Below are positions 29,179 to 55,869 of a DNA stretch of 64,000 nt, in pieces. This stretch comes from Trichoplax sp. H2 (Eukaryota). Position numbers and translations under genes: made by a program. The stretch spans positions 62,001 to 126,000 of the forward strand of contig NOWV01000185.1 of the NCBI GenBank assembly GCA_003344405.1, given 5' to 3'. Under the pieces are notes generated by a model, which had not been told where the DNA came from, made no database searches, and saw nothing but the letters and a program-made list of their open reading frames with translations. How positions within the stretch are numbered: the first letter of the stretch is position 1; every line of letters begins with the position of its first letter.

Positions 29179-29474
29179 GATATCTTGTAAAATTTATTAG
29201 TTGATTTTTTAACCGTGTAGTAGGATTTATTCATGAGCATTTTTAGAGTTGTTGAGTTTAATCGATAGCTAGGCGTAAGGGCGATATTTCTTTTCCTGAA
29301 TAAGATATTCGAAATAATAGAGGTTTGCATTTAGTTTTCAGATATCTTGTAGGATTTATTGGTTGATTTTTCGAGCATGTGGCAGGATTTGTTCATAAAT
29401 ATTATTTAGTGTTGTTGAGTTTAACAGATAGCTAGTCGTAAGGCCGATGTTTTCGTTCCTGAAATAGGTATTCG
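29179..29474. repeat. Tandem duplication (~162-bp period) of the GPCR C-terminal codons and proximal 3' UTR
   Basis: GATATCTTGTA...GTTGTTGAGTTTAA...GATAGCTAG.CGTAAGG...TATTCG at 29179-29311 and 29341-29474; the second copy overlaps the stop codon of the GPCR at 29421. Confidence 0.85.
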
Positions 29475-30485
29475 CACTAATGGGCGTTTGCACATTTCAA
29501 TAATTTCACTACGGATATCACGGCTAAGCCAGATATATAATAGAGGATTTAAAGCAGGATACGCAAAAGCTAATTCTCGTAGGCCATACTCGGATGCTCT
29601 TAAACAATTTACAATTAATCTGATGAACCGTAGTCTTAGCTTTAGTGGTGATGATCCCAAAATGAGGGCTATCATGGAGCAAATGATGTACGGCAAAGTC
29701 AATAATATAAAAGTACCGGTGATAATAATTAATGGTACAGCGGCTTTAAATTGCTTGGTTATAAGTTGACTTTTTCTTCGTTGAACAGGATCAAATGAAG
29801 GATACTGTTCGTTATTCATCTGTTTTAAATGGCGTAGAGCAATAATAAAGATATAACCATGACAAATGAGCATGATCTTCAACGGACATAAATAGCAAAA
29901 CGAATAAAAGAAAATGTTGTAAATTAATTCGTCGCCAGCGTCGCCACTGGTAGTGCAAGGATTTTTATCATCTCTTTTAACAGTGCGAAATGTTAAAACA
30001 GGATAAAATGATCCAATCAGGGCCATCACCCACACTAGCGTTAGATAAATCCAAGTAGTCCGACGATTAACGAAGTTACTAAAATGAAAGGGCATGCCTA
30101 CTGTGATTGCCCTATCGATCGCGATTAAAGCTAAATGCAAGCACATACACGACATTAGAAAATTACGTAAAGAAGTCTTGAGATAGCATAAAATATTTGT
30201 TGGATCCATTACGACAAGCGGATAAGGAAGGCAAAAGAGTATTGCAAATAAAATGCCACTCATTGACATACTGCATAATTTAACGTTTTGAATTTTCCAT
30301 AACCTTTTCCGTGTTAATATTAGATAAACTAGGAAACCATTAGTTAATAGGGCTGTAAAACCAATTATTTCATAGTAGATAATTTGAGGTAATTCTCTCA
30401 TCACATTATCGCTGTTGGTCGTATTGCTAAGGCTAAGCAACGATCCAGTCGAACGATTGTCCACTTCAGAGTGATTCTCCATCAT
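29421..30485 (-). CDS. Intronless class A GPCR, orphan; 354 aa
   Basis: Seven TM segments; LLTNG, LCYLKTSLRNF, AIDRA, ECL2 Cys, NPLLY; shares RE(L/M)PQIxYYEI and YGLRELAF with 19622-20686. Confidence 0.93.
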   Translation of the reverse strand: MMENHSEVDNRSTGSLLSLSNTTNSDNVMRELPQIIYYEIIGFTALLTNGFLVYLILTRKRLWKIQNVKLCSMSMSGILFAILFCLPYPLVVMDPTNILCYLKTSLRNFLMSCMCLHLALIAIDRAITVGMPFHFSNFVNRRTTWIYLTLVWVMALIGSFYPVLTFRTVKRDDKNPCTTSGDAGDELIYNIFFYSFCYLCPLKIMLICHGYIFIIALRHLKQMNNEQYPSFDPVQRRKSQLITKQFKAAVPLIIITGTFILLTLPYIICSMIALILGSSPLKLRLRFIRLIVNCLRASEYGLRELAFAYPALNPLLYIWLSRDIRSEIIEMCKRPLVRIPISGTKTSALRLAIC

Positions 30486-31644
30486 CTTGGGCCAGTTTCA
30501 ACCCGAGAAATTGCAATAGTCGGTGAAGCTGATATTGATAAGATATAAATAAGGATAATTGTACAGAAAATATCCACCACTACCTATTCTACAGTATCTA
30601 CTACTAAATATAGATTGATGGAATGGAGATCAAGAAGACAATAGCAAGTACGTTGGAGATAAATAAATTAATTGTAATTATTGAACATTCAATTAATATT
30701 TGTCAAAACACGTTCACGTTAATTTCTCTTTCCTCGTTGAAATAATGAATATAGTAAGATTATTCATGATTTACTATTTCTAACGTCTACTTGAACAATA
30801 CACGGTGATGCTTTTAATGGTGATGAGCATTAATTTATTCAAGATTAGAAAATTGATAAAATACTGCTTTGATTCTATCTCCTAAGGTACGCAATAGGTT
30901 GAAAATGACGAAGTCTCTACACATGAAAATGCTGTCATTAATTAATTTTGAAAATTGATTTTTATTGACTAGACTATTGTCTTTGCTTACTTAAAGTTTT
31001 CAATCTTAAATTAGAATTAGAAATGGCGGTAATGGAAGTAGTTTAGATATTATGGTGAGAAAGTCTTTTTCAAGTCAACACAGTAACGTAGCAGTAGTCC
31101 TTGACCATACGGTATTATTTTTAATCAATAATTGAATTAAATCAAAATGCGTTTGTAAAATTAATGGATTCAATTTTTTTCGTTTATGAATCCTGTTCTA
31201 TAGGATATGCAAAGTTATTACAACACTCGTATACACTATACATAGAAAGGAAAAATAGAAATCTCTGATTTTGTTGATGTCTGAAATCGCAACATTGCCA
31301 ATTTATCATGCTTTTATCGTTCAATGGCCAGTTAGTAACGGAACATTTTCATAATTCTATGAATAGGATTAAGTTATTTCCTGTTTACTCTTTCGAAATA
31401 GTGTTCTACCATTGGTTGAAAAATGTACGGACATTTCAATATCCTGTTATTTTAACATGGGCTCAAAATTAATTCCGATGGCTTTCAAATTTCTATCGTA
31501 CATTCTAAGTACTAGCGACGACGCCTTAAAATACAATCATTTATACTTTCATCCTGTCGGTTGTGATATACAATAGAGATCATTTCTAAGCGCTGATCTA
31601 ATTGCTTTGGCAACATTATGCTACCAAACAGAAAGTATCCGTTA

Positions 31645-33330
31645 TCTTGACGAATATCATCGTTAATGAGATTTATTGCTGTATGATTTCTACTTCTTGA
31701 GCTATACATTTTTTTAAAATAAATATAGCTCTGTCACAAACCAACTTCGTGACAAGTATAACGTAAAACAAATCTCTAAATTACTATAGTCTCCGGGATT
31801 CAGTATCCCTACTTACAAGAATTTAGACGCCTTTGATTCTACGTTAAAACAACTATACAATTGAGAACTGCTTTATTCAACTATCTGACGGGTTTATATA
31901 CCCTTCTACAGCAGCTAACATTCACAAGTCATCTTATAATAACACTTGGGTGAGAACATCTACTAACTAGTTTTTCACAGTCGGACTACAATATGTCCAT
32001 TCACAGAATCATTTCAGCACATATTACAGCACAGCAATAAATTTACTGTAACACATTTATAATTAGAGTAATTCCTATTGTAAGTAACTAGTTGTAATAT
32101 AATATCACTATACTATATTAACCAAATTTAGATAGCTATTTCTTCACGGTAGTTCGTACCGTGACAAGCTCATGGCTTATAAATCCATATCCTCGATCTA
32201 TTAAAATAAAGTACTCCAGTGCCACTTTTCCCTTTAATATTGATCATTTAATGTGTTGTCATTAATCCAAGTGCTTTCATTCCATAATGATAGCCAACGT
32301 AATGTATCCGTTGACTTAGCTATTATCATCGCTAATACCATTTATTACTGCACGATTCTACATCTTGAGCTATAATCTTTATTTCAAAACAGATATAGTT
32401 TATGGCTCTCAGTTGATTATTATACTAATCCAATCCATGTCGTCCATATACATAAATACAATTCACTGCTCATCTTCGCTTATTAATTATTGACTGCGGT
32501 ATTAACTTGACTAATATCATCGTTAATAAGATTTATTACTTTACGATTCTACTTCTCGAGCTATATAATCTTTATTTTAAAATCAAATATAGTTTATGGC
32601 TTTTTATACTAATCAAATCTATACGCCAAAAAATATAGTACTGTTTCACTATTCCCTTTAATAAATATTGATTTCGGTATTAACTCGACTAATATCATTG
32701 TTAATAAGATTTATTCCTGTATGATTCTACTTCTTGAGCTATAAATTTTATTTCAAAAGCCTAACAGAGTTTATGGCTTTTTATACTAATCAAATCCATA
32801 CACCTAAAAATACAGTACAGTTTAACTTTTCCCTTTACTAAACATCGACTACGGTATTAGCTTGACCAATATCATCGTTAGTATGATTCTGCTTCTTGAA
32901 CTATAATCTTTATTTATAGTTAAAGAGTCAATATAGTTTATGGCTTTTAGCTGCTTTCTATACTATTCAAATTTATATCATCTATGGGCAAAAAAATATC
33001 GTGCAGTACAAACTTTTTCCCTTATAAACTATTAGTAGACCCTTCGCTCGTTACACTGCGCGTAGTGTATTAACTTGACTACTATCATCATGAATAAGAT
33101 TTATTTCTGTATTATTCTACTTTTTGAGCTATAATCTTTATTTTAAACAAATATAGTTTCTGGCTTTTTATACTATTTAAATTCATATCGTCCATCGATA
33201 AAAGCAGTAAGTGCTTTCGCTCCATGATGCTACTAAACGGAATGCATGCGTTTTTAAGTTGAATATCATTGTTAATAAGATTTATTACTGTACTGTATAA
33301 TTCTAGTTGTTGCGCCACTAGCCTTATTTA
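31645..33330. repeat. Degenerate tandem array, ~160-230-bp units, ~6-7 copies
   Basis: Recurring TTGACTAATATCATCGTTAATAAGATTTATT...GATTCTACTTCTTGAGCTATAATCTTTATTT...ATAGTTTATGGCTT; GA(G/A)CTA anchors at ~31699, 32367, 32559, 32736, 32898 and 33126. Confidence 0.9.
31732..32166 (-). mobile_element. Solo LTR, family B (435 bp), inserted into the tandem array
   Basis: Termini TGTCAC...GTGACA; perfect 5-bp target-site duplication AGCTC (31727-31731 and 32167-32171); removing it restores the array motif ATATAG..ATGGCTT; minus-strand TATATAAA (31900-31893) lies 15 nt before AATAAA (31877-31872). Confidence 0.85.
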
Positions 33331-34382
33331 AAAGAAATCGAGAATATTATTGCATTTCGCTGCTTTTTATGCTATTGAAGTCTATTTTCGAGCATAGGTA
33401 AAATGTACGACTCCTATAGTAGAGTGCAACGTTTTTCTTTATTATAATTATTGGTTATTTAATACGTTGTGAACTTTATTTTAGCATACTGTAAGTCAGA
33501 ATATATGAGATACCGACTTCATTTACAAGAGTTTATGGCTTTTATAGTAATTGCTTATCATGCAGTTCAAGTTCATATCATCCATCTACAAAATCTAGTA
33601 AAGTGCAACATTATCCTTAAACGGAATGGGATGCATCCGTTTTTAACTTGAACAATATCATCGTTAACAAGATTTATGAGTGTACTGTATGATTCTAGTT
33701 GTTGCGCCATTAACCTTATTTTTAGAAGAAATAAGAGTATATTATAGCATTTCGCTGCTTTTTATGCTGTTGAAGTCTATTTTCGTGCTTAGGCAAAATG
33801 TCTAGAATAGCGCAATGTTTTTCTTCATTACATCTATTGATCATTTAATTCGTTGTGAACTTCATTTTAGAATACCGTAAGTCAGGATACACAAGATATC
33901 GACTTCACTTACAAGAGTTTATGGCTTGTACAGTAGTTGTTTCATCATGCTGTTCAAGTTGATATCATCCATCTACAAAATCCAGTAAGGTGCAATTTTA
34001 TCCTACGGAATGCATCCGTTTTTAACTTGAACAATATCATCGTTAACAAGATTTATGACTGTACTGTCTGATTCTAGTTGTTGCACCATTAACCTTATTT
34101 TTAGAAGAAATAAGAGTATATTATAGCATTTCGCAGCTTTTTTATGCTGTTGAAGTCTATTTTCGTACTTAGGCAAAATGTATAGTGTAACGTTTTTCTT
34201 TATTACAACTATTGATCATTTAATGCGTTGTGAACTTCATTTTAGAATACCGTAAGTCAGGATACACGAGATATCGACTCCATTTACAAAAATTGATGGC
34301 TTTTACAGTAGTTGCTTTATCATGTTGTTTACGTTGATATCATCTATCTACAAAATTGAGTAAAAGTGCAATTTTATCCTTA
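33235..34382. repeat. Tandem array, 3 copies of a ~375-395-bp unit
   Basis: GCATTTCGC at ~33352, 33747 and 34126; GTAAGTCAG at ~33491, 33877 and 34252. Confidence 0.92.
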
Positions 34383-35254
34383 TTATTATCGATCGTTCAA
34401 TCTGTGGGAAATCTTACCTGTTTCATAGGAAGTCAAGATATCCTAACTTGCTGAGCGCTAACTGGCAGTAACTTATTCTCTCTATATGGCAGATGTCTAA
34501 TCCAGGTATCTACTAAACTGCGGTGTGTAAATGTCTACTATTAACTACGAATGCATTTGCATTTTCTTGATGGTGTCTTGCGCACTTTCCTTCTTACAGT
34601 GAATCATCTAGACGTCCAATAAGGAAGGTACTATTAGCCTATTGAACGCCCGTATGTTATGTTATCATCAACACAGCAGCAATCCTCCCAGCAAGGGGAA
34701 TCTGGGAAATTAAAGTTGATTTTATTTCCTTACTGATTGAAAGAATTGGATGAAACAAAATTAAACAGGAAAATGTCGACGTACATTGAATGGTATAGGT
34801 ACGATTGCTATCAACAGAATAGCGTTTGCGGTTATTAAAATTGACAGTAATTGGATTGTACATGGGTTGGATGAATAACAATAAGATTGCAAACTTTGAA
34901 TCATTTGCTCAACACATGCGATCTAAATCGTCCTTTAATGTGAGCAATTGATTTCCATCTAACCCAAGTCATACTGTATTACGAAGAATAAGTGGAAGCC
35001 AATATCCGCCATTGACAGTGACGATAACTGGCATTTTTGCTACTTTTGCTACATTAATAATAAAAGTTTCAATTGGCTAGCGCTAGATTGCTTACTATAG
35101 GGTATTGTTATATAAATTACTATGTTCCTTAATTGATTCTTTTGGATTTTCTATTAATTCGGTAATGGATTGCCTTACGAAATAGATACCATTTACAATA
35201 CCATCAGACTAGCAAGAATTATATACCATATGATTGTAGCTGTATAATAAGCGT

Positions 35255-37232
35255 TTAGGACATTGGAAATTGGTAAAGAGCTGCATACCTTCCAGTTTGG
35301 AAATGATACAACTGTCTCTCAATATCACCTAACAAAGAACTTGCTCCAATACGGAATAGATTGGGTTGTGTCCATTCGTCTCCTAGCTCTTCCTTCATCA
35401 GAGCAAGCCAACTTAAGCAATCTTTAGCGCTTCTAATCCCTCCGGCTGGCTTAAATCCGACCTTGTATCCAGTACGTTGGTAAAAATCACGTATTGCCCT
35501 GATCATGACAAGAGCAACTGGGAATGTGGCATTCACTGCTTCTTTGCCTGTCGATGTTTTAATAAAAGTTGAGCCAGCCATCATACTGACAAGGCTTGCT
35601 TTATACACATTGGTCAACGTTCCTAAGTGTCCCGTAGCAATAATCGTTTTTAACAGGGCATTACCACACGCTTTTTTGCAGGCAGCTACTTCATCATATA
35701 AAGCTTGCCAATTGCCTGATAATACATAGGATCGAGTGATGACAATATCGATTTCACTTGCACCAGCTTCGACTGCGTATTTGATTTCATCTAGGCGTTG
35801 AGGAAGAGGTGTTTGACCATCAGGAAATCCAGCTGCTACAGAAGCAATGGGCACTTGTGAGTGATTATTCTTATTAGCGGTAACAGCATCCTTGACTCGA
35901 GACGAGTAGACACATACCGCTCCGGTAGTAATTTCTGAAAAGTAGAACATAGTTTTGAGTTTCATTGATTCATTTTGATCAACACAAGTTATATGCTAAT
36001 GATCAAATATGCATGATAAACATTCATGATGAAATTGGCAGCATGTTGATGTAAAAAATGCAATTCTTCAAGTCGCTATGATAGCAAAATTTCTTAGTTA
36101 CAACACAATTCGTCAAATGATAGCCAGCATTAACAAACAACCAATTACAGTGCCGAAGGGAATGAGTAGAAAGAGTCTAAAAATGCAAATCTTGAAATAA
36201 TAAGAGTTAAGGCAAGCATTACCAAGTTGATTGAACCGAGTGGCACTTTTCAAATGATTGTAAAACAATAAAACTACTGAAGGAGATGCTGTAAGTAGAA
36301 TGAGTCTAAAAAAGTAATTGATGAAATGATGATAGTTCAGGCAAGGATTGCAAAGTTGAATCGATCGCCACTCTTCAATCATTTAACAGCAAAACAAACG
36401 AAGAAAATGAGTCGAGTGAGTTTCAAAATGCAATTCTTGAAACGATGCGAGTAAAGTAAAGAATGGCAAAGTTGAACCGATCGCTACTCTTCTTTCAACT
36501 ACGCCATAATAAGCTAGCGAAGAAAATGAGCGATTTTCAAAATTCACTGGTTGAAATGATGAGAGCAAGGCAAGCATTGCAAAGTTGGCAAGCTACCGAA
36601 GAAAACGAGCGATTTTCAAAATGCAATAGCTAAAATGATGAGAGCAAGGCAAGCATTGCAAAGTGGGCAAACTACCGAAGAAAACGAGTGATTTTCAAAA
36701 TGCAATGGTTGAAATGATGAGAGCAAGGCTTGCATTGCAAAGTTGGCAAACTACCGAAGAAAATGAGCGATTTTCAAAATGCAATAGCTAAAATGATGAG
36801 AGCAAGGCAAAGTTCACTGGCATCCTATCAAGGACTGCAATGTTGAACCCATCGCCACTCTTCAACTACGCGATGTTTGAAATGATGAAAATAAGGGAAG
36901 AATCACAGAGATTTCGAATCTATTTATCCGATGGAAACGACAATCTTACTCAAGTCTTTTAATTGGAGGCTTTCAAGAACGTCTTGACGGATAGGATTAT
37001 TGGCCTTGAAACAGAGACGTGATACATTCGTTTCCGTATCATCACCAGACAAGGTGGTTAAATCTAAGCAAGTAACAGCTCTTAAAAACCAAGCTGCTTG
37101 CCAATCTTTCTTGACAGATCGTCGCTTGAGATGGGTTGCTGCTCTCCTCTGCACTGCTGGTAAGTTAACACGCGACGATTCAACCCATGCCAGATCCAGA
37201 GGTTGGATTACATTCCGTTGGCTGTCTACCAT
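35255..37232 (-). CDS. DERA: Deoxyribose-phosphate aldolase (DERA/DeoC, long animal-type form); 2 coding exons, 320 aa
   Basis: Exons 37232-36950 and 35934-35255, joined by a phase-1 GTAAG...TTTCAG intron (963 nt, open frame). Motifs: DLTTLSGDDT, GAVCVY, VAAGFPDGQ, EIDIVI, Schiff-base FIKTSTGK, GFKPAGGIR, FRIGASSLL. Confidence 0.97.
36519..36811. repeat. 79-bp minisatellite (~3.7 copies) in the DERA intron, with older degenerate copies back to ~36160
   Basis: TGAGAGCAAGG occurs at 36560, 36639, 36718 and 36797. Confidence 0.92.
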
Positions 37233-38941
37233 CGTTCAATTTGGTTATTGTAGCTAGAAATTCATTCAAATCCAATCGATCAAGATTGCCTAAAGCAAGG
37301 AATAGCAGCAATGGCGGACAGCAAATGGGCTCCAACGGGTTCCAGTACGGTACCAGTTGGGACTGAAGAGTGACAAATGATGCAAAAGTGACGCAAATCC
37401 GACACTCGTGGCTATACACGCTTCATACGCCTACTGTGTCACTGTCGCTTTAGGCTTGACGTGGTGCAATGGTGGGTAGGTCAGTGAAAGGAGAGCGTAC
37501 CGCGCCGGCGCAGTATCGATGGCATGACGGCCAATGGGTCACGACGATCCTCGCGTGTTGCTTCTTTTACTGCGACATCAATTTTGCTCGGTGTAGAACT
37601 TCATGGCTCGCATTCACCGTATCGTGTTCTTTACTGTACTGTAGAAGGAAATACAACATGGCGATTGAAGTATCGATGGATAGATGACATGATGGTCAAT
37701 GGACAACGACGATCATCGCGTCTTGCTTCCTTTATTGCGACATCGATTTTGCTCGTATCGCTTGCAGTCACCGTATCGTGTTCTTGCTGTACTGTAGAAG
37801 GGAATACAACATGGCGATTTAAGCGTGATATTGGACGTACACTACATCAGTTCAATTTTGCACTTCTGCAGGTGTCTCCCATTTCTTACTGAATTCAACA
37901 ACAAAATGGCAGACATCGAGTACAAGACTGAACTGATTGAGTAGTCCAGTTTCGTGTACAGTGTAGACTGTACATGATGATATCGTTGTCCCTTGACTCA
38001 AAAGCACTTTCCATCCACCAGCATGTTGCAACAAGGGCGTCGGAGCCATGCAAAATTCATGTCACCAGCGCATCTGCCAACACCACCAACACGCCCACGT
38101 GTCGTACCGTATCGAATACGGTACGACTGATAGGCAGATTGCACATACAGTACTGCACGCACGGTACTGTACACGGAGTACAGAGATCAACTACACGCAC
38201 ACTACGTACGAAATCATGTGTTCACCGATAAACAGCATGCAAGCCAATAGAAACAGGCGGACGACTGAAGCGTGCGTCCACGTGGAAAAATACAAATAAT
38301 AACCAGGTGGTCAAGATGGTCAGCGATAACCGACACCTTGTTGTGCTTAGTAATAAATAATAATAAAACAGTTTATTTCCCATCAATTTTCCATCGGCAA
38401 GGCGAATACGCAATGCAATAGTGACCACTATGATTGATTAAGTGGACAGTTGATGAGAAAATAGGAAGCAAGAATCAATCGTCTGCTAGTCATCACGTAC
38501 AGACACAGACTTGTGGTGTTTCCTCCGTCACGTCAACATGACAATAGAGGATATTATAGGCCACGGGCGATGCTTTCCGTATCATTACAACACTCATGCT
38601 GAGTTGGGGTAATCACCCGACATAAACCAACAGTCTACAGTATAGAAAATACTTTGCCCATGGGCTGTAGCCATGGCCCACCAGTCAAGGTCACGGCGGG
38701 ACGTAGTAGGGCTCTACCACTGCGCATGCCTAGTGGTGTGGCCACCACAGTTCTTATTGTGTACATAGGCTCGACTCCGTCAGCAGCTTGATGCGGATCC
38801 TTCAGACGTACAGACGTCGGACTTCCAGCCTGCAACGTTGGAGGTAGAATCGCTTTGGCAAGCTTGCCATACTTCCATCGAAGTCTCCAGGTTGCAACTG
38901 GATCATCGCTCTATTTCTCTTTAATTCATTATCATTGCAGT
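37233..38941. promoter_or_regulatory. Putative shared (bidirectional) promoter region and 5' UTRs of DERA and ALDH16
   Basis: 1709 bp between divergent ATGs; visibly richer in GC and CpG than the rest of the window; YY1-like AACATGGCG at 37655 and 37808. Confidence 0.6.
37512..37823. repeat. Direct tandem duplication (~155 bp x2) in the divergent spacer
   Basis: AGTATCGATGG...ACGACGATC...CACCGTATCGTGTTCTT...TGTACTGTAGAAGG.AATACAACATGGCGATT starts at 37512 and again at 37669. Confidence 0.9.
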
Positions 38942-41900
38942 ATGGCTTCTACGGCAGCTTCCGTTGTTCAAACGGTAACTTCTAAAACCGAGGAGAATAA
39001 TACAACCAAAGAATCACTCAAGCCAAGTAAACCGACTGTTAGTCAAATCTTCAAGACGTTAGAGTATGGCCCTGCTCCAGAATCGCCCGATGTAGCCTAC
39101 GCTTGGTTAGATGATCATCATAGATCTTTTGGTCATTTTATTGATGGAAAATGGCTTAATCCCGAAGATCGGAAACGTTACGATTCACGATGCCCTGCTA
39201 CAGGTGATATTATCCAGCTTAATACTAACCATCAAACGATGACATTTTCAACTGGATACCCCATTATTAGTTGGAGTCTATCATAACATGTACTGCTGTA
39301 GGAATGGCACACAAGGGTACAGCTTGCCAAGGGATTTAGTCCATGGCGATATGCAGATATCCTGATGCTATCTTGACATGACACTGTACCTAAATATCCA
39401 AACATGACATCGCCACAGTGATATACAAACACCATGAGGTAAATCATGCATGATACAGTTATGAATCACAACGGTAAGAGAGATTCTTATAGCTACTTGA
39501 GGCAATAATTTGCTACGAGCAAGCCGTGATCAAATTTCATCCAGGAAGCTCCAGTAGACGCAAGCAATCCATCATACAGTGGCAACCGATGACTCGACTG
39601 ATTTCTCTCTAAACTAAAACGTACAGTGTACATTGAACCAAATTGCGAAATAGACGTTTCTACTGCATAGATAATTCAAGATGCCTACATTGTCCTACAC
39701 TATCGTCACTATACGAATAGACATTGTGTCTCATAATTATACTAATCGTGCCGTAGTAGACACTCTACTACAGGACGAAAAAGAAATAGTTGGCAACAAT
39801 CTCTTGACTAGATTCAGGTCTTTCATCAAAGAAAGGAAAGGAAAAGTTACTTTGCACGCACAATCCATCGCATAGGATAGACTGCATACATACACTCTTA
39901 TAGAAGAAATGTATCAAACTGTAGAAAGCGATTAAATTTATAAAGGCCGTCAAATCAATCGACTGCTTTGCTTGAATTTAATTTTATTCAGTAGTCCCTG
40001 GCTATACTAGTCGATGAGTAGAGCTACCCATAGAGTTAAGTAAGTTTCTTAACTCTATGGATTAACCCTATGAATGCAGCATTTACACATCGATAGTACA
40101 GTACTGTTGCATCAATGGATGTCTACTTGAGAGACAAGCCTCGGGTGTACAGTATATGTACAGTAAACTACAGATCAATCTGTAGTTTAGTATCCAGACA
40201 ACTCAGCTATTAGCAAACTTTCAATAAGTATATGTGGTCCTAGATCAATTTTTTTTTTTCGGCAATTTCCATTAATTGATACCAATAGAACTATGTGACC
40301 TTAGAGGAAGCTATTATAATGAGTAAAAGTTGAAAAAGTACTACAAATACGATGCAATCTTGGTTGATCATTTCTAGATCTGTCAATGTACAAATAATAT
40401 TCACTCGACGTTACTAATTCATGGTCAACTTACCATAATAGTTGTCATTCCATTCATTATTATCCACACTATCTTCGTTTTAATGACTGTATTCAACGAG
40501 CGCTAAATTGATTGTATTTTAGAATTAATATAATTATGTATGTTAACTTGAAATAGGAGAAAAGTTGGCATCAACTGTGCAAGGTAACCAAGAAGATGTT
40601 GAAGTAGCTGTTTCTGCTGCTCGAAAAGCGTTCGTGAAATGGAGTGCTTTACCTGCACACGTCCGGGCGCGCCATTTATACTCGGTTGCAAGACATGTTC
40701 AAAAGCATATGAGATTGTTCGCCGTTATTGAGAGTCTCGATAACGGTAAACCGATCAGAGAGACTCGCGATTGCGATATACCAATCGTAATTCGCCATAT
40801 TTACCATCATGCTGGTTGGGCACAATTAGCAGATACCGAAATGAGAGGATGGAAACCTGTCGGCGTTGTTGGAGCTATCACGCCATGGAATTTTCCTTTA
40901 ATGTTGTTGATCTGGAAGGTATGCAATAGTGGATTGGACCAATATACTTTCAAGTCAATGTCAACATATTTAAATTGAAGATTTGCTTTAATCTACAATT
41001 CTTCACGTATCCATAGGTTTGTCCGGCGCTAGCTATGGGAAATACTGTGGTTTTAAAACCTGCTACCTATACTCGATTATCTGCCCTTTTATTAGCTGAA
41101 GTATGTGCTGAAGCCGGGCTACCACCAGGGGTATTTAACGTAGTAACTGGTAATGGTGCATTTGGCCACAATCTTGCAACCCATCCAGATGTAGATAAAG
41201 TTGGCTTTACTGGTTCTACAGAAGTTAGTAGATATCTTCTCGTCACAATTATCGATGAAATGATTCTCTATAAAATGAATTTTTACTTTCCACATGATCA
41301 CCCATTCTATTAGCAAGAGATACTTGAAAGTGATTGCTTACTAATTGGATTAGGTAGGGAGAATTTTACGTCAAGCAACTGCTGGAAGTGGCAAGAAGAT
41401 ATCGTTAGAATTAGGAGGAAAATCCCCATTCGTTGTTTTCGATTCGGCAGACCTTGATAGCGCTGTAGAAGGCGTTGTAGATGCGATATACTTTAATCAA
41501 GGCCAAGTTAGTTCTATAAATGTCCAGAAATGATAGGCATTATCCATTGTGCAATATATTAAGCTAGAACGGTTGCTGTTATTGGTAGCTCTTGTTGTAT
41601 TAAACGAAATTTCGAAATGAGTACTGATTAATTATTTTTGGTAGGTTTGTAGTGCAGGATCCAGATTAATTGTACAAGAGTCTTGTGCCGAACTTCTGAT
41701 AAAGAAGATCAAGGAAAGAATGACCCACTTACGTCTGGGTGATTCATTAGACAAGGCTATCGATATGGGGGCCATTGTGGATCCATCGCAGAGAAAAAGT
41801 GTTGACATGATGGTGCAAGAAGCCAAGGCGGATGGAGCTCATGTAAACTAGTGCATGTATTTTGATATAGTATTATACATTAGAGTACTATACTTTCGCA

Positions 41901-44195
41901 CACCTAGTCTTAGAAAGTGTTTTAACTGAATAGGTTTATCAAGCCTGTGCATGTATGCCTTCAACCGGGTGCTATTATCCTCCTACTCTTATAACCAATG
42001 TACAAACAGTTTCAAAAATTGTCCAAGAAGAAGTAAGCATTGAATTTTTTACCAAATATGATCCTTTGTCAGTGGAAGCACTTACGCTATTCATAATGAA
42101 TCCTCTGTTATAGGTTTTTGGCCCTGTACTTGTTGTCCTTACCTTTAGAACTCCAAAGGAGGCTATCGCATTATCAAACAATACTGTATTCGGCTTAGGC
42201 GCAAGTGTTTGGACGGAAAACTTGTCTTTAGCTTTAGAAGTAGCATTAAGTATCCGAGCTGGAAGCGTGTGGGTCAATGGTCACAATTTATTTGATGCCG
42301 CGGCTGGATTTGGTGGTATGCGTGAAAGTGGTTTTGGTAGAGATGGAGGCAAAGAGGTTATTGCTAACTTTCATTATTCAATTTAGCATATTTCGTACCC
42401 TCGTTATTACTTCACCTCTACTGTACTCGCACTTTATTCAATGTCATTTTCAGTGCAATAGAAAGTAGGCCAATATGCATGATGTGGTATTTAGTAGAAT
42501 TTTGATCGATTAGCATGTTTCCAGATCAATTGGATCACCATTTCTGAGGAACAATATCCTTCAACCAAACAAACTGAATTCATTTTCGCTTTTAAATTAA
42601 TTAAGCATTGTCCACTTGTATCTTGCTAGGGTCTTTACGAATATTCCGTGCCAGCATGGCTGACAAGGCCTCGTCCTGTGGCATTAAAAGATTTCGATGC
42701 AAAAGCTTTTGGTAAAAATGTTGCTCCAAGACCTCTAAATCCTAGCAATAGCGAAAGCCATGTTTACAATAACACAACCAAATTGAATGGGCAGGATGTA
42801 CCCAGGTTATTTATCGCGGTGTTCTCTTTGTCAACTAGTGTTGCAATAGCCTCTTATTTATGTTATGGCAAACAGAAACTGTACGCAGAATTTATTTCAT
42901 ATTACTTCCATCTTTCTCAAAAATATTTAGCATTGACCGAACTTGCAAAATGTACATCGGAGGTGCTCAAAAGCGACCTGATGCTCCATACGCTCGAGCA
43001 GTGGTAAACCCTGATAACAAAACAATTGGTCAAGTTGGCGAAGGAAGTCGTAAAGATATCCGTGATGCTGTTGAAGCGGCTCATAAGGCTTTCCCTGGGT
43101 ATAAACTATTTTACTACTAATAAACAATTGTAATATTAGATTACAATAATTGCAATACTTAAGTAAATAGCTTTCCAAGTTTCAATTTCTCTCTCAATTA
43201 ATACACCGCTGTATCTATTTCAGATGGGGAAAACGAGCTGCTCATAATCGTGCCCAAATTGTATACTTTGTTGCTGAAAATCTGGAATTGCGACGTGAAG
43301 AAGTTGCTTCACGCATGTCAGAAATGACGGGAAAGAGTTTAGAAGATTCAAAGTTAGAAGTGGATTTGTCCATTCAACGATTATTCTACTGGGGAGCATA
43401 TGCTGATAAATATGGTGGAACTGTGCAGGTCAAAATTTTAGATATTATTTTTACTTTATCTTTCTGCTAGGTTGTCAATTTATTTCTTGATTTTGTTTCC
43501 TGAAATATATTTTCATTAAATGCAATTTGATAATCATAACTATTAGGAAACCAATCTCTATGGAGCAACTGTTAAGGTACATGAACCCGTTGGTGTTATT
43601 GGTATTGCTTGTCCCGATAATTGGCCTCTTCTTGGATTTGTATCATTATTTGCACCGGCAGTTATTCGCGGTAACACTATAGTCATAGTTCCAAGTGAAA
43701 AATATCCATTGAGTGCAGTAGATTTGTATCAGGTAAAGAAAAGATTTGCTCAATTCTTCTGATCTGTAATTAAATTCGTGCAATGTAAAAGTACGTATGT
43801 GCTTCATTTTTGGTACAATTCACCTGTCATTGAATGTATGATATAATTTTATACGTTGTAAAGTCTTATTTCATTCCTGATCTGGGTCATACTAGGTTTT
43901 TGATACATCTGACTTGCCTGGTGGCGTTGTTAACATTGTCACTGGCAGCCGAGATCATTTAACCAAGTACTTGGTAGATCATCAAGATGTAGAAGCATTT
44001 TGGTATTTTGGATCAAATGAAGGAAGCAGATATGTCGAGCACGCTTCTGCTGTGAATATTAAACGTACTTGGGTAAATTACGGCTTTGAGCGGGATTGGG
44101 CAGACCCAGCACAAGGACAAGGAGAAGAATTTTTATATCACGCTGTTGAATGTAAAAATATTTGGATGCCCATGGGCGAAATTTTTGCTAACTAG
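38942..44195 (+). CDS. ALDH16A1: Aldehyde dehydrogenase family 16 (ALDH16A1-like, with an extra C-terminal ALDH-derived region), catalytic residues intact; 12 coding exons, 852 aa
   Basis: Manually spliced GT-AG exons: 38942-39203, 40557-40918, 41017-41223, 41354-41506, 41645-41842, 41934-42032, 42114-42356, 42630-42805, 42931-43098, 43224-43428, 43547-43732, 43896-44195. Total 2559 nt with consistent phases. Motifs: [65 protein letters not shown]; then a second, partial ALDH-like region ([17 protein letters not shown]...KNIWMPMGE) typical of ALDH16. Confidence 0.93.
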
Positions 44196-44322
44196 ATTTG
44201 GATATTAGTAAATTCAGTTGTTAAAACTGTTCGTTTCAATGGACTGCATCTTCGAACATTTACATCGGTTGACATAGAAGCACTCTAGGTCTTGTTCGTC
44301 AAATTTCTGTCTGCAATTGATT

Positions 44323-44328
44323 AATAAA
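44323..44328 (+). promoter_or_regulatory. Candidate polyadenylation signal of ALDH16
   Basis: AATAAA ~130 nt after the stop codon; also present in the alternate copy near 45178. Confidence 0.45.
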
Positions 44329-44373
44329 TTAAGAAAGTAGTAATCATAAAATTATTAATTGTTATTGGGTCAG

Positions 44374-45006
44374 TGTCACAAAACAGCTTTGCAACAAGAT
44401 AACGCAATATACGATCAATAAGTCAATTCCTTGAACCACGTATCAAGGAACGATATCTGCACTATCACAAACACTTTTGCTCTACTAGCAGAGTACACAA
44501 AGACTTAAACGCCTCGTATTTTACGTTAAACACTAAGTTGGACAATTCTTCTTTATTTCACGATATACTGCATTTATATACTATTCCTCAATAGTTCATG
44601 AGTCATAGTTAATACAATTAACATTAGAATCATTTACTGAATTAGATATTAATTTTAGCTACTGCTCCCTTAATGCAGACAACAGTATTTACGAACATAG
44701 ACATGTAATGACTAATACAGAATAGTCAGATTACGATATGTCCTATCACGGAACATTTCCATGATAATTTACAGTCTACCATAAGTAAATTACAATCACA
44801 ATGATTCGAACTGTAAGCAGATGATTTGCATTCCCTATTATAACTATTATAATTTCAGTATGTGTATAAGTGTCACTGTCATAAAAAGTCAGTGCTATAT
44901 TAAAATACAGTATATCCAAATTAGAAGTTAACTAAATAAGGATAGTCTAACAGAATTATCCTAACATAGTTATTTCTACTGTAATACAGTATTTAACACT
45001 GTAACA
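44374..45006 (-). mobile_element. Solo LTR, family A, copy 2 (633 bp), just downstream of ALDH16
   Basis: TGTCACA...TGTAACA with perfect target-site duplication GTCAG (44369-44373 and 45007-45011); an empty site with a single GTCAG is at 45224-45228. Confidence 0.92.
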
Positions 45007-45047
45007 GTCAGCTTATACCGCATTAAANNNNNNNNNNNNNNNNNNNN

Positions 45048-45244
45048 TAGATTTGGATATTAGTAAATTCAGTTGTTAAAACTGTTCGTTTCAATGGACT
45101 GCATCTTCGAACATTTACATCGGTTGAAATAGAAGCACTCTAGGTCTTGTTCGTCAAATTTCTGTCTGCAATTGATTAATAAATTAAGAAAGTAGTAATC
45201 TTAAAATTATTAATTGTTATTGGGTCAGCTTATACCGCATTAAA
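45048..45244. repeat. Second, LTR-free copy of the ALDH16 3' flank after the N gap; probably the alternate allele
   Basis: Matches 44193-44373 plus 45012-45027 with few SNPs; the gap is at 45028-45047. Confidence 0.88.
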
Positions 45245-48200
45245 GATGCTGCTGGGGCATTTTCAGAGCTACCCTTCGGATACATTTTGATTCGATAAAG
45301 CTATACACTGAGATAGTTTACAATGCGGTCACAAAAGTTAATATTTCTATGGTGAAATCGTATCAATATCCGTAATCCTATGCAAAACAGGCTATGTTAT
45401 CACAGTTTTAGTTACGATTACAATAAAAAATTCAATTTTGAAATCAGCTGACTTTACTATTATTTACATTGTTAGACGAAATTGTTATGCCATTCGCATA
45501 GTCAACGAAATTTTTAGCAATATATACTTGCCATTGCCCAAGTATCGATTTGGTTATTAATGGAATGAATCGATTAGCATACCAGATTAAATTTGGAAAT
45601 AGGATAAATTTTATCATATACGTGGTATGTAATAAATAGTGTTATTTAAATCAGATATAGACTACGATCATGAAATTAGCCATCCAATGATTCCCAATGT
45701 TCAGCTATGATAAAGAGAAATTTTAAGTTTATTGTAGTTCTCAGATACTTAGCTCGATATTATTCTCCACAATCAGCAAAACTAGACAGAATTAATCTAG
45801 TGGCACTACCTACTGAGCTCATTTGGTAGGAGTAACAAATCACCCCGACTCAGAAGCTTTCACAGAAATTTTAACGATAAATTTACACTTCAGCTCCTAT
45901 CTAATATAGCACTATTTACTGACATACGTATCTGATAGCTAATTCTAGATAGTCAATTTATAACATAATATTCACGGAATCATTTATAGCGTAAGGCAAA
46001 AGCTACTAGCAGTTAAAATTACAATCACTACTGCAATCAATTCATCTTAATCATATAGCGTATTTGAATTGAAGCAAACTTTAAACTCATCAAATTTAGT
46101 AATCTACTATTCTTGGTATTTTGTGCAGTAGTAATGCGAAAATAGGATTACTCTTGTTAAGATCGCTAGCCCTAAAGAGAATCATAAAAAAATGCCATTC
46201 GTCATCGACAATTAGCTTTTCTTATTTATATCCTTGTTATATGGAAATATATTATCTACTATACTACGGTAAGAAAATTCATTTCTTTTTAAAAGTATCT
46301 ACGTCTTTAGAACGATTATGAATAGGAAAATAATAAAAGAAAAATGACTGGAAGTGCCCGTTTGTTAAAGGGAGTTTTACAGGAAAATAATTTAATTTAA
46401 CGCATCACAAAAATTATTAAACTAGATTCTGCTAATGTCCACTCTTAGAACGAAGTTTAATGCCAGTAAAAATATATTTTTAAAGCCAGTTAGAATACTG
46501 ACAACAATAGCATGTATAAAACGTAGGCTATCAAGAAAGAAGGGATTGATTTGGAGGCAGTAAGGCTATCTCCAGATAACCCGCTGTAATCGGATAAAAA
46601 CTAGATGTTATTCTTTATTGTGGCATGCAAGCATCGACAATTATAAAGGACAGGAAAAGAATATCAGAAGTGTAAAAATACAGCGCATAAATAAATTAAT
46701 CACAATTAATTGAGATTTAAATAGTAGAGTATATCTGTCTACACACGCTATGCTATACTAAAGATAGAAATCTTGCTCCTAAAATTTTAGGCTCAACACT
46801 TGGTTATAATTGAAAGTCCGACAAGAAAGATCTATTTCACAATCTACTCAATCACGCAATTTATTTATTTGGATATTTTCTCACGTTGGTATTTAAAGAA
46901 TCACAGCAATAACGTGTATGTAGAATAACTTAATGGATAAATTATATAGTATATAGTTAATTTAAATTTGATCCTGCAATTGAAAAAGATTACGTTCCAA
47001 GAATAACAGCAGTAAAATAATAAAGCGTATGACAATTCGTACGGAAATTTTCCATTCCTAGCTGTAGGAAATATTGATAAATAGCTTTCTTTACGATAAA
47101 GATATGTATGTAGATAGTAACTTTTTGTACTAGTCTACATTGTAGATATTATCGAATGAAGGACTGTATTCAGTAAAAGCATCCAATGATTAGTTTACAC
47201 AGATGATTTTAGCTGCTAAACTAATTAATTGATAAATATGAATATTAATTGTATAAAAACTTCTAACCTTAGGTCTTGTCTATGATATAACAATCAGCCT
47301 TTCTAGCAATGATAATAATATTAACTAACTCAATTGCTTCTTACCATTGTTAAATATTTCCTAGAAATCCAAAGTTTCATGCAACCTAAGGAAGTGGATA
47401 CAAAATTAATCCATTATGTTAACTATATTACCTATTTATCTGCAATTAAAATGATACAAAGGCTTAGAAGAAGGACATTAATCAATATCTAAATCTCTTA
47501 CGAAAAGCTTTAAATTGCTGAAACTTAATCTTTTGATTGGATGTAATCATCTTACATTAACAGATTATGGCTATCAATATCTAGGTTTCATTCATTACAG
47601 TTAATGAACTTTTAAAAATATCTTAATGGTCTTCTTTAACAATTTATTCATGAATTATGCTAAGCCATTCCCAAAATGTCAAACTTTTATAACACCTAAG
47701 TATCTCTATTTAGCTTTGATATGAAAATATCAATTTCAATAGTCGTACACTGAAGTAATGATGTTAGTGTAATACTACACAGTGTACCATTGATAAATTA
47801 CTATTGCCCTTACGTTTTTATCTCGGGAGAGCCAAATATAGCCATTCCAAAGTATAGTATCTATATACATGATATGAAGTAAATAATACCTAATATTAAA
47901 TGATTTTATAGTAAAGTAATTATTTTGTCGGGTAGACTATCCTATAGATGTATACTTCCTGACGGTAATTACGCGGAAAAAAGTGCTATTTTGCTAAGAT
48001 CAACATCAAACATGACATGACCTAATTCAGTTATTGCCTCTTAGAATGCAGTATACATCAATTAGAGGCGTTAAAAATAATAATTATAGAACTATGAAGA
48101 TTAAATTTAACTTAGAAACGAAATTGTTTCCGAGTTAAGACAGCTTAGAGTCAACTAATTTTAATTATTAATTACCTAACCCTTTTTCTCTTTTGTATTT

Positions 48201-54822: not shown

Positions 54823-55869
54823 CTATATTAAATGAGTACTTGTCATTCTAGTTGTACTTGCTGATTGTAATAAAGGTTTCTTTCGTGAAATTCGTAAAAA
54901 CTCTGCTATTTCTTTTCGTAGATCTTGACTAAAAAGGATAAATATAAATGGATTATAGGCGGGATAGGAGAAAGCAAGTTCACGCAAACCATACGATGAA
55001 GCTTTTAAAGCATTCATTAAAACTCCTAAATGTTTCTTCCGTATCTCCCATGGCAAGTCGCCTAATGAAAACGCAATGAATAAGCAGACGAAGTATGGTA
55101 CAGTAAATATCAGAAATACCACAGAGGTAACAATTAAAGGTCGTGCCGCCCTAAATTTTTTAATAATTCGTTGTCTTCCCCTTTTTAGTTCTTCCATGGA
55201 TTTACTTTGCTGATAATCAATATTTCTAACATGTCGCAATGCAACTACAAAAAGATAACCATGACATAGAATTATGACTGAATAGGGCAGAATAATGCAT
55301 AAGCTATAAAATACGTAATGATAGTTAGCTTCTTCTGATATTGATCCCGTTAAATATGTAACATTGCTCTTTCGTCGTAAAGGACTGATGATTGGATAAA
55401 ATGACACAAATAAGGAAATTAGCCAGACCAAGGTTAAATTAAGGCCTACAATACTTGGTCTAACGAAACTCTTGTACTGGAATGGAAAAGCGATAATAAC
55501 CACTTTATCCACTGCATCGGATGCTAAATGGAAACAGAATGAAGCCAGTAAGAAATTGCGCAATGGCTTTTGAATTATTTTTAGGACAGAGGTTGCTGGA
55601 GATGAAGAAATCCAAGGATAAGGTAGGCAGTAAAGCAATGCTAAAATGATGGAAGTAAAACACATACTACATAATCGGATGTGAGGAATTTTCCATAATG
55701 TCCTTCGTGTTATAATAATGTAAGCTAGTGGAGCATTGATAGTTAATGCGATGATGCCAGTGATTCCATTATAAATGGCCGTAATAGTTATACTTAGCAT
55801 CACGCCATTGCCATTAGCATTTCTTGTTGTATTGATTGGCAATGAAGACAAAGTTGTGTTGATACTCAT
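54823..55869 (-). CDS. Intronless class A GPCR, orphan, divergent; 348 aa from the first ATG
   Basis: The ORF track starts at TTG 55893; the first ATG is at 55869 (MSINTT). Seven TM segments; LYCLPYP, KPLRNF, AVDKV, YGLRELAFSYPAYNPFIF; paralog of the other three. Confidence 0.9.
   Translation of the reverse strand: MSINTTLSSLPINTTRNANGNGVMLSITITAIYNGITGIIALTINAPLAYIIITRRTLWKIPHIRLCSMCFTSIILALLYCLPYPWISSSPATSVLKIIQKPLRNFLLASFCFHLASDAVDKVVIIAFPFQYKSFVRPSIVGLNLTLVWLISLFVSFYPIISPLRRKSNVTYLTGSISEEANYHYVFYSLCIILPYSVIILCHGYLFVVALRHVRNIDYQQSKSMEELKRGRQRIIKKFRAARPLIVTSVVFLIFTVPYFVCLFIAFSLGDLPWEIRKKHLGVLMNALKASSYGLRELAFSYPAYNPFIFILFSQDLRKEIAEFLRISRKKPLLQSASTTRMTSTHLI

Follow-up and report, generated by a model that had tools for sequence, protein, structure and literature searches.

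A divergent DERA-ALDH16 gene pair in Trichoplax sp. H2 and its relationship to bacterial deoC-ALDH16 operons

In a 64,000-nucleotide stretch of the genome of Trichoplax sp. H2 (contig NOWV01000185.1, positions 62,001 to 126,000 of the forward strand; hereinafter, the window), the genes for a deoxyribose-phosphate aldolase (DERA, minus strand) and for an aldehyde dehydrogenase of the ALDH16 family (plus strand) are divergent immediate neighbors, with the start codons at 37232 and 38942, respectively, and 1709 bases between them. We propose, with moderate confidence, that this pair is an old, co-inherited module that carries out the last step of deoxynucleoside breakdown, with ALDH16 oxidizing the acetaldehyde produced by DERA. 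Under this scenario, the long-form DERA would cleave 2-deoxyribose-5-phosphate to glyceraldehyde-3-phosphate and acetaldehyde, ALDH16 would oxidize the acetaldehyde to acetate with NAD+, and binding of the two proteins to each other would prevent the loss of this toxic, volatile intermediate. The origin of the pair would lie in a bacterial deoC-ALDH16 operon, and the gene trees suggest that both genes were passed on jointly from a Chloroflexota-like donor to an early eukaryote. Trichoplax, an early-branching animal, would have retained the adjacency, with the two genes now pointing away from each other on either side of a GC-richer, 1.6-kb region, possibly a shared promoter. An earlier prediction made from the sequence of the window (hereinafter, the original prediction) had described the two spliced genes as head-to-head, with 1709 bp between the ATGs, and this is confirmed by family matches, translations and RNA splice joints. 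The same prediction put forward ALDH16 as the dedicated partner of DERA, a role that is supported by the bacterial pairing, the deo-type gene context, the gene trees and a model of the complex, with acetaldehyde as the probable substrate.

The two proteins, their bacterial operons and common descent

By family and motif tests, the window DERA is a class I DeoC aldolase (EC 4.1.2.4) with a predicted capacity to cleave 2-deoxyribose-5-phosphate, the established chemistry of this family, the products of which are glyceraldehyde-3-phosphate and acetaldehyde. A 246-codon frame (35255-35995, minus strand) matches PF01791 (DeoC) with an E value of 7.6e-20, and the best solved relatives of the protein are deoxyribose-phosphate aldolases, with 5eky at the top (E value 8.5e-41). 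The class I aldolase motifs FIKTSTGK (which includes the Schiff-base lysine) and GFKPAGG of exon 2, as well as E-I-D-I-V, align with the same motifs of 5eky, and K221, K257 and D158 are invariant in 90 sequences; we take the counterparts in the E. coli DeoC to be Lys167 (the Schiff-base lysine), Lys201 (the second lysine) and Asp102 (the proton-relay aspartate). The window protein is of the long form, with an N-terminal extension of approximately 46 residues, given that the alignment with solved DERAs begins no earlier than residue 47-48 of exon 1; this extension is present and conserved in 90 DERA sequences and in the 73 bacterial loci described below.

The other gene is assigned, from its sequence, to ALDH16 (cd07111), in which a complete ALDH module precedes a C-terminal ALDH-like domain devoid of the catalytic subdomain. 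PF00171 is matched by all 8 ALDH16 exons that matched any family; the N-terminal exons cover positions 17-455 of this family and the C-terminal exons only positions 121-237. A sponge ALDH16 (P0004) aligns to the window in 12 pieces, over its residues 13-837. The best PDB match for the ALDH16 exons tested is the solved ALDH16 6mvr, and the last exon aligns with the C-terminus (681-766) of this structure.

Bacterial counterparts were collected from the side of each gene. For the ALDH16-anchored set, a profile (A1) of nine bacterial ALDH16 proteins was used on contigs representing one genome per species, and the best 80 of 588 relatives were taken with flanks of up to 10 kb, in which DERA was sought by tblastn with both window DERA exons. 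In 73 of these 80 loci, a long-form deoC is located directly upstream of ALDH16 on the same strand, with an identity to the window protein of 57-67% over exon 2 and 48-66% over exon 1. Among the 69 loci with a measured gap between the two genes, 47 gaps are between -14 and +147 bp and 6 between 244 and 728 bp, and the remaining 16 are nominal overlaps, an artefact of taking the first possible start codon. The paired loci belong to 8 phyla (Pseudomonadota, 30; Gemmatimonadota, 13; Acidobacteriota, 12; Bacteroidota, 7; Chloroflexota, 5; Myxococcota, 3; Bacillota, 1; Verrucomicrobiota, 1), with one more locus that has no named phylum. As for the seven unpaired loci, one has just 68 bp upstream, and six of the seven genomes without adjacency carry a full-length long-form DERA elsewhere (65-69% identical, extension included, to that of L057, an Anaerolineae metagenome-assembled genome). 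No DERA was found with the L057-type query in the genome of L020, an incomplete metagenome-assembled genome with ALDH16 at the contig edge. The neighbors in the six loci without an adjacent DERA are unrelated (a SurE nucleotidase, a GFO-type oxidoreductase and a cytochrome oxidase subunit among them), and no alternative partner was seen there. The SurE-type nucleotidase, a nucleotide breakdown enzyme, is encoded two genes upstream of ALDH16 in an Anaerolinea locus (L017:37-729).

For the DERA-anchored set, the window DERA exon was compared with metagenome contigs, and the best 80 of 566 were taken, of which 12 with less than 400 bp downstream were dropped. A frame of the ALDH16 type, with at least 50% identity to P0095, follows within 1.3 kb on the same strand in 60 of the 68 loci; in two more (L135 and L151), ALDH16 is located further downstream, at 2.6 and 3.7 kb, L139 has only a 41% match, and in the other five (L081, L082, L084, L120 and L159) no ALDH16 was found downstream of DERA. 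L081 and L082 encode the metagenome DERAs with the highest similarity to the animal protein within the best 80 of 566 (72-73%) and are possibly of eukaryotic origin; L082 has no match to DERA exon 1 and may be an intron-bearing eukaryotic contig. The original prediction had mentioned a deoC-ALDH16 adjacency in some alphaproteobacteria and actinobacteria. The adjacency is real and close to a rule in both sets; no Actinobacteria are present among the 80 ALDH16-anchored loci.

All open reading frames (ORFs) of the 80 loci were clustered, and the representatives of the 17 recurrent clusters outside the pair were annotated; two of these matched no family. The recurrent families include pyrimidine-nucleoside phosphorylase (16 of the 80 loci), cytidine deaminase (13), a ureide/sugar permease type (9), a PfkB sugar kinase (8), a second, ordinary ALDH after ALDH16 in Acidobacteriota (7), two PNP_UDP_1 clusters of the purine-nucleoside phosphorylase type (6 and 5), a phosphopentomutase-type metalloenzyme, the NupC nucleoside transporter and an inosine-uridine nucleoside hydrolase (6 each), and RbsD and a phosphoribosyltransferase (5 each). 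ABC-transporter ATPases form two clusters (13 and 6 loci), and a kynureninase type and an rRNA methyltransferase, without a link to nucleosides, occur in 5 loci each; no shell genes were present among the recurrent neighbor families annotated in the 80 loci. The bacterial context of the pair is deo-type nucleoside catabolism. Given that no neighbor family in these loci comes near the frequency of DERA beside ALDH16, the conserved core is a two-gene unit in variable deo-type surroundings. In Acidobacteriota, a three-gene deoC-ALDH16-ALDH unit is found in L037, L043, L054, L055, L063, L065 and L067, with the second ALDH (about 500 aa, approximately 45% identical to the catalytic module of ALDH16) encoded directly after ALDH16. 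Matches to ALDH16 that spanned 3.3 kb in this phylum had been considered as insertions, an interpretation that was rejected given this separate gene downstream.

Gene trees were built by quick searches with IQ-TREE under LG+G4, with the Shimodaira-Hasegawa-like approximate likelihood ratio test (SH-aLRT) as the only support measure. The DERA tree (90 rows) comprised the window, 19 named eukaryotes, 69 bacterial loci and one short-form outgroup, and the ALDH16 tree (100 rows) comprised the window, 28 eukaryotes, the same 69 loci and two ordinary ALDH as the outgroup; 11 of the 80 loci were left out given that one ORF of each fell outside the clusters. Eukaryotic DERA forms a single clade (20 rows, SH-aLRT 99) with L057 as the sister (98), and eukaryotic ALDH16 likewise forms a single clade (29 rows, 100), again with L057 as the sister (100) and other Chloroflexota next (95). 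The window ALDH16 groups inside the eukaryotic clade (SH-aLRT 100), and the outgroup ALDH is on a branch of 1.29. When 39 metagenome pairs were added, the sister group consisted of L057, L085, L093 and L097 for DERA (97) and of the same four together with L116 and L099 for ALDH16 (100). Tree congruence was one of the checks proposed in the original prediction, and both trees place eukaryotes next to the same operons (L057, L085, L093 and L097), which argues that eukaryotes received the two genes together, and the nesting of eukaryotes inside bacterial diversity points to a bacterial source. On this phylogenetic evidence, DERA and ALDH16 probably were inherited jointly by eukaryotes from a bacterial operon. 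Rows from EukProt/MMETSP branch at the base of the eukaryotic ALDH16 clade, and accordingly the gain probably predates animals. Within this clade, the window ALDH16 branches after sponges and before cnidarians and bilaterians; the window DERA groups with sponges (85).

Predicted complex and the substrate of ALDH16

The complex was modeled with the catalytic module of the Nematostella ALDH16 (residues 1-520) and the full-length Nematostella DERA; alignments of our own were not used. The interaction prediction score from aligned errors (ipSAE) was 0.86 in all three runs, compared to 0.00 for the best of three controls, the runs shared at least 97% of the contacts, and the predicted local distance difference test (pLDDT) value of the partner was at least 92. 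In calibration, 51 of 78 solved complexes attained this score mark, as did 2 of 108 mismatched pairs; the corresponding numbers for eukaryotes are 39 of 65 for solved pairs and 2 of 126 for unrelated ones. The modeling check suggested in the original prediction thus yielded predicted binding, for the catalytic module of ALDH16 only. Given that the PDB entries matched for either family are named as single enzymes, it seems unlikely that the model recalls a solved complex. From this model, DERA and ALDH16 probably bind each other.

On the ALDH16 side, the modeled interface consists of residues 28-43, an N-terminal peptide that ends in EYGPA and is 93-99% conserved across 90 sequences, with additional contributions from residues 153-157 (approximately), 306-315, 363-366, 459 and 479-480. 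On the DERA side, it consists of residues 22-52, which belong to the extension that has no counterpart in solved DERAs, along with residues 90-96, 241, 244 and 272-284. In the window, the predicted DERA-binding peptide of ALDH16 corresponds to residues 30-45 (the codons of residues 30-47 are at 39029-39082, plus strand), and the main predicted contact surface of DERA to residues 21-51 (37080-37172, minus strand). The invariant basic DERA residues R31, R39, K42, R241, R244 and K276 are placed by the model opposite the invariant acidic ALDH16 residues D157, D308, D310, E314 and D366. The predicted contacts join the two subfamily-specific features, namely the EYGPAPE peptide of ALDH16 and the basic extension of DERA. 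The residues that DERA contributes to the interface are conserved in animals from sponge to cat and marsupials, which fits continued binding in mammals and, equally well, a structural role of these residues within DERA.

The Asn, Glu and Cys residues of the window ALDH16 align with the catalytic triad of 6mvr, in agreement with the original description of the enzyme as catalytically intact; a review gives the triad of that structure as Asn165, Glu261 and Cys295 (PMC12041015). All 90 aligned ALDH16 sequences, among them those of 9 non-mammalian vertebrates and 65 bacteria, have the same Cys, Glu and Asn, an indication of selection on catalysis outside mammals. This invariance speaks against a mainly non-catalytic function, in which ALDH16 would stabilize or regulate DERA and the dehydrogenase activity would be secondary. 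Such a function, which has been proposed for the mammalian pseudoenzyme, would account for the retention of the mammalian ALDH16A1, which lacks the catalytic residues (PMC12405490, PMC10650815), and is compatible with a modeled interface that uses N-terminal peptides, away from the triad, and with the DERA interface residues kept in cat and marsupials; nevertheless, we consider it very unlikely as the main role.

Within the catalytic scenario, acetaldehyde is the parsimonious substrate of ALDH16 because it is a product of DERA without another dedicated route. The properties of the pocket are in line with this choice: a review describes an aromatic box in the Loktanella enzyme and activity of this enzyme toward hydrophobic aldehydes, hexanal among them (PMC12041015), and the W-N-F, W-K and F-G-G residues of the pocket do not vary across the 90 ALDH16 sequences. 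It is improbable, but worth considering, that the link with DERA is real and ALDH16 acts on a different aldehyde of the pathway, such as glyceraldehyde-3-phosphate (in a GAPN-like, non-phosphorylating reaction), open-chain deoxyribose-5-phosphate or an aldehyde generated when DERA catalyzes a side reaction. Indeed, the comparative data (73 of 80 and 60 of 68 loci) demonstrate coupling rather than the substrate, the second ordinary ALDH in the seven Acidobacteriota loci could be the acetaldehyde enzyme there, and the hexanal activity indicates a broad pocket (PMC12041015). On the other hand, the invariant aromatic box is described as suited to hydrophobic aldehydes (same source), and no sign of phosphate-binding residues was noticed, although no test was aimed at them. 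Moreover, it is established biochemistry that glyceraldehyde-3-phosphate already has a glycolytic route, whereas acetaldehyde needs disposal. Oxidation of acetaldehyde remains our preferred assignment.

The gene pair in Trichoplax and linkage in other animals

The DERA gene model consists of two coding exons on the minus strand and encodes 320 aa without an internal stop. Coding exon 1 (36950-37232), with the ATG at 37232 and the N-terminal long-form extension, is supported by RNA and translation, and RNA contigs extend into the 5' untranslated region (UTR) to 37322-37328. The single intron (35935-36949, minus strand) accounts for 1015 skipped bases, has GT..AG ends and is spliced in all three RNA runs (joint 35934/36950); Tandem Repeats Finder detected a 79-bp repeat with 3.8 copies inside it (36514-36810). 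Coding exon 2 with the stop codon (35255-35934) is supported by the DeoC match, the 5eky alignment, the RNA joint and translation, and the 3' UTR extends in the RNA contigs to approximately 34960. A tandem repeat of 375 bp in three copies (33236-34380) is located downstream of DERA.

The ALDH16 model consists of 12 exons on the plus strand (38942-44195) and encodes 852 aa without an internal stop. Exon 1 (38942-39203), which starts with the ATG, encodes the family-specific N-terminal motif and has the P0004 alignment, RNA and translation in support. The catalytic residues are distributed among exon 2 (40557-40918; Asn in PWNFP, codon 40889-40891), exon 4 (41354-41506; general-base Glu in LELGGK, codon 41408-41410) and exon 5 (41645-41842; Cys in VCSAGSR, codon 41648-41650), all three with the 6mvr alignment and RNA in support. 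Exon 3 (41017-41223) encodes the NAD-binding domain (Pfam, RNA and translation), exon 6 (41934-42032) is supported by the P0004 alignment, RNA and translation, and exon 7 (42114-42356; Pfam and RNA) ends the catalytic ALDH module (FGG ... GFGRDGG). Exon 8 (42630-42805), a poorly conserved interdomain linker, is followed by exon 9 (42931-43098), where the C-terminal ALDH-like domain begins, and exon 10 (43224-43428), which continues it; the P0004 alignment and RNA support these three. The rest of this domain is encoded in exon 11 (43547-43732), which matches only the NAD-domain part of PF00171, and exon 12 with the stop codon (43896-44195), which is the exon aligned to 6mvr 681-766; both have RNA support. 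Just past the stop codon, an 855-bp segment (44274-45128) contains an N run and a repeat, with a depth of about 3.7e5 compared to about 112 around it; runs X1 (DNA-like) and X7 (RNA) both join across this segment, which has duplicated flanks. Most probably, either an insertion was introduced during assembly or a polymorphic high-copy element is located in the ALDH16 3' UTR.

Transcription was examined over 34000-45500, where 4 of the 21 runs found were analyzed: X7, X14 and X15 are metatranscriptome RNA from one study, and X1 behaves like DNA, covering introns and intergenic DNA without splice joints. The DERA intron and all 11 ALDH16 introns are present as GT..AG joints in contigs of each of the three RNA runs, so that both spliced mRNAs occur in every RNA run examined. 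About half of the RNA contigs are only 95-99% identical to the window, the rest at least 99%, and they may derive from a related strain. The ALDH16 RNA contigs start at 38937-38939 in all three runs, without upstream RNA, and this start coincides with a pyrimidine-rich, acceptor-like TTGCAG site (38935-38941) located 2 nt upstream of the ATG, which weakly suggests spliced-leader trans-splicing or a 5' exon missing from the assembled contigs.

The region upstream of both transcripts, delimited by the RNA contig ends (37329-38936), may be a shared bidirectional promoter, judging from its position and composition: the window is AT-rich (about 30% GC), and the GC content at 36-40 kb is 41-43%. A duplication of approximately 155-165 bp is located within this region (37515-37825). 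The RNA contigs of DERA and ALDH16 are separate and do not cover 37329-38936, which is no evidence for a silent promoter region. The pair had originally been called a co-regulated, operon-like module. For the animal genes, the latter term has to be dropped, given their divergent orientation, the separate RNA contigs and the lack of one-transcript or same-strand organization; as for co-regulation, its sole basis is the presence of both spliced mRNAs in the same three RNA runs. The surroundings are as originally described, unrelated G protein-coupled receptors (GPCRs) and repeats: the only other long ORFs of the window are four intronless rhodopsin-family (7tm_1) GPCR genes that flank the pair, all on the minus strand (178-1224, 19622-20806, 29421-30497 and 54823-55905), and nine bacterial deo-context protein queries matched no further deo genes in the window.

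Linkage in other animals was assessed from the record length given for each listed protein, with lengths equal to the base taken as the same record, for 29 species with both proteins. The two genes share a record in seven of these: the hemichordates Glandiceps and Ptychodera, the crinoid Antedon, the gastropod Gigantopelta, the bivalve Solemya and the nemerteans Tubulanus and Lineus. Among the non-vertebrates with records longer than 10 Mb, both genes are on one record in 7 of 11 species; in four non-vertebrates (Amphiura, Styela, Octopus vulgaris and Sycon), they are on different chromosome-scale records, and in seven species, including Lottia, Capitella and Nematostella, on different small scaffolds, which excludes close adjacency there, a result that applies to scaffolds and not to chromosomes. 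Given that bilaterian chromosomes are conserved as linkage groups, the seven same-record cases amount to approximately one ancestral event rather than seven. These observations suggest an old same-chromosome linkage of DERA and ALDH16, which does not imply that the tight head-to-head pair is ancestral. The original prediction left open whether the linkage was ancient or re-assembled; the former now appears to apply to the chromosome, and among the animals compared, the tight pair was seen only in this window. The Solemya velum DERA (P0278, 546 aa) exceeds other DERAs in length by about 230 aa, with PF01791 as the sole family matched; possibly, it is a merged gene model.

Several observations weigh against the scenario of a co-inherited, physically associated module. 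With respect to the donor, the next relatives of eukaryotic DERA beyond the sister group are Alphaproteobacteria and a Verrucomicrobium rather than other Chloroflexota, and the DERA root hangs on the very long branch of the outgroup. With respect to the complex, conservation at the interface does not significantly exceed that of the other residues (Fisher p 0.26 and 0.71), and the model, which provides a confidence score rather than a measurement, does not include the C-terminal domain of ALDH16, which could clash with the pose or occupy that surface. With respect to the substrate, the only activity of ALDH16 reported in the literature consulted is on hexanal (PMC12041015), and no assay described there addressed acetaldehyde. 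Finally, with respect to the locus, tight adjacency is not general in animals: the genes are on different records in 22 of the 29 species, including all 11 vertebrates, and in Solemya, where they share a record, their locus tags differ by about 750. The orientation also is not the same, divergent in the animal and co-directional in bacteria, so an operon relic requires an inversion, and contig depth provides neither an expression ranking of the two genes nor a measure of co-regulation.

The points on the locus also are compatible with a narrower alternative, in which the functional link is carried by history and the head-to-head arrangement is a by-product of rearrangement, with each gene having its own promoter and the arrangement having no regulatory meaning. 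The orientation unlike that of the operon, the lack of adjacency in the other animals that could be judged (Lottia, Capitella, Nematostella and Solemya) and RNA contigs that give no evidence of co-regulation are all in its favor. By our own estimate, however, the chance that two pre-named genes adjoin is about 2 divided by the gene number, that is, roughly 1e-4, the 7 of 11 non-vertebrates that keep both genes on one long record indicate old linkage, and the intergenic region is GC-richer than its surroundings. We consider the alternative possible but rather unlikely.

Implications and relationship to known systems

The reviews and the research paper from 2021-2025 consulted here (including PMC12041015, PMC12405490 and PMC10650815) give, in their available parts, no physiological substrate or pathway for ALDH16; the partners discussed in the literature, with the same three among the sources, are maspardin, HPRT1 and thioredoxin. 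Human ALDH16A1 has been linked to gout and serum urate, through proposed mechanisms that are tentative (PMC10650815). Judging by titles and the beginnings of abstracts, no published study of the DERA-ALDH16 pair is apparent, and curated databases may show a link. A co-purification of human DERA and ALDH16A1, mentioned in the original prediction, was not confirmed: among the papers that name both proteins, one has ALDH16A1 merely as an entry in a protein table, and the others appear, from titles and the openings of abstracts, to be protein lists or unrelated work. An immunoprecipitation study of ALDH16A1 (PMC12405490) does not name DERA in its main text.

The near-obligate pairing with DERA places ALDH16 in nucleoside catabolism, a pathway that also yields purine bases and, from these, urate. 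If the proposed scenario is true, the pair would be a clear case of a bacterial two-gene operon that entered eukaryotes as a unit and is still linked in some animals; and the N-terminal extension of animal DERA, which is absent from the well-studied bacterial enzymes, would be explained. The role of an orphan, disease-linked family becomes directly testable.

The window DERA shares the aldolase chemistry and motifs with the short-form E. coli DeoC (1JCL, 5EKY) of the classical deo operon (deoCABD), and the same gene types (nucleoside phosphorylases, the phosphopentomutase type, cytidine deaminase and a nucleoside transporter) border the bacterial pair. The short form, however, lacks the extension of approximately 46 residues, and in contrast to the classical operon, the bacterial pair consists of a long-form deoC followed by ALDH16; the E. 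coli deo operon is not known to contain an ALDH16-type gene.

In DmpFG and BphI-BphJ, a barrel aldolase hands acetaldehyde to a bound dehydrogenase that is encoded by the next gene; these systems combine a metal-dependent pyruvate aldolase with a CoA-acylating dehydrogenase of another fold. The likeness is in outline only, given that the DERA-ALDH16 pair would combine a class I Schiff-base aldolase with a non-acylating enzyme of the ALDH superfamily, and it is not a member of this group. A second parallel is PutA, in which a barrel enzyme makes the aldehyde that is used by an ALDH, as proposed here for DERA and ALDH16; PutA is a single polypeptide that acts on proline, whereas DERA and ALDH16 are two proteins, with a deoxysugar phosphate as the substrate and a channel that is hypothesized. 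A review notes a resemblance between the C-terminal domains of ALDH16 and PutA, the latter of which is tied to the dimer form and to channelling of the intermediate (PMC12041015). A far-reaching version of our proposal, which we put forward tentatively and would not expect to hold in full, is that ALDH16 is an obligate physical partner of long-form DERA across bacteria and animals, the two constituting a PutA/DmpFG-like acetaldehyde-channelling machine that was inherited as one Chloroflexota-like operon, with the mammalian ALDH16A1 surviving as a DERA-binding subunit. In that case, the association of ALDH16A1 with gout and urate would operate via deoxynucleoside catabolism and not, or not only, via HPRT1.

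Within the ALDH16 family itself, the window protein has the same two-part architecture as the Loktanella enzyme (PDB 6MVR, 6MVS, 6MVT and 6MVU) and human ALDH16A1; its intact triad is shared with the Loktanella enzyme, unlike mammalian ALDH16A1, which is a pseudoenzyme. The literature consulted assigns the family no pathway, whereas the window ALDH16 has a pathway context and a predicted partner. Each of the two proteins is an ordinary member of its family; what the literature consulted does not describe is the link between them, a variant of the known type of system in which an aldolase is coupled to a dedicated aldehyde dehydrogenase.

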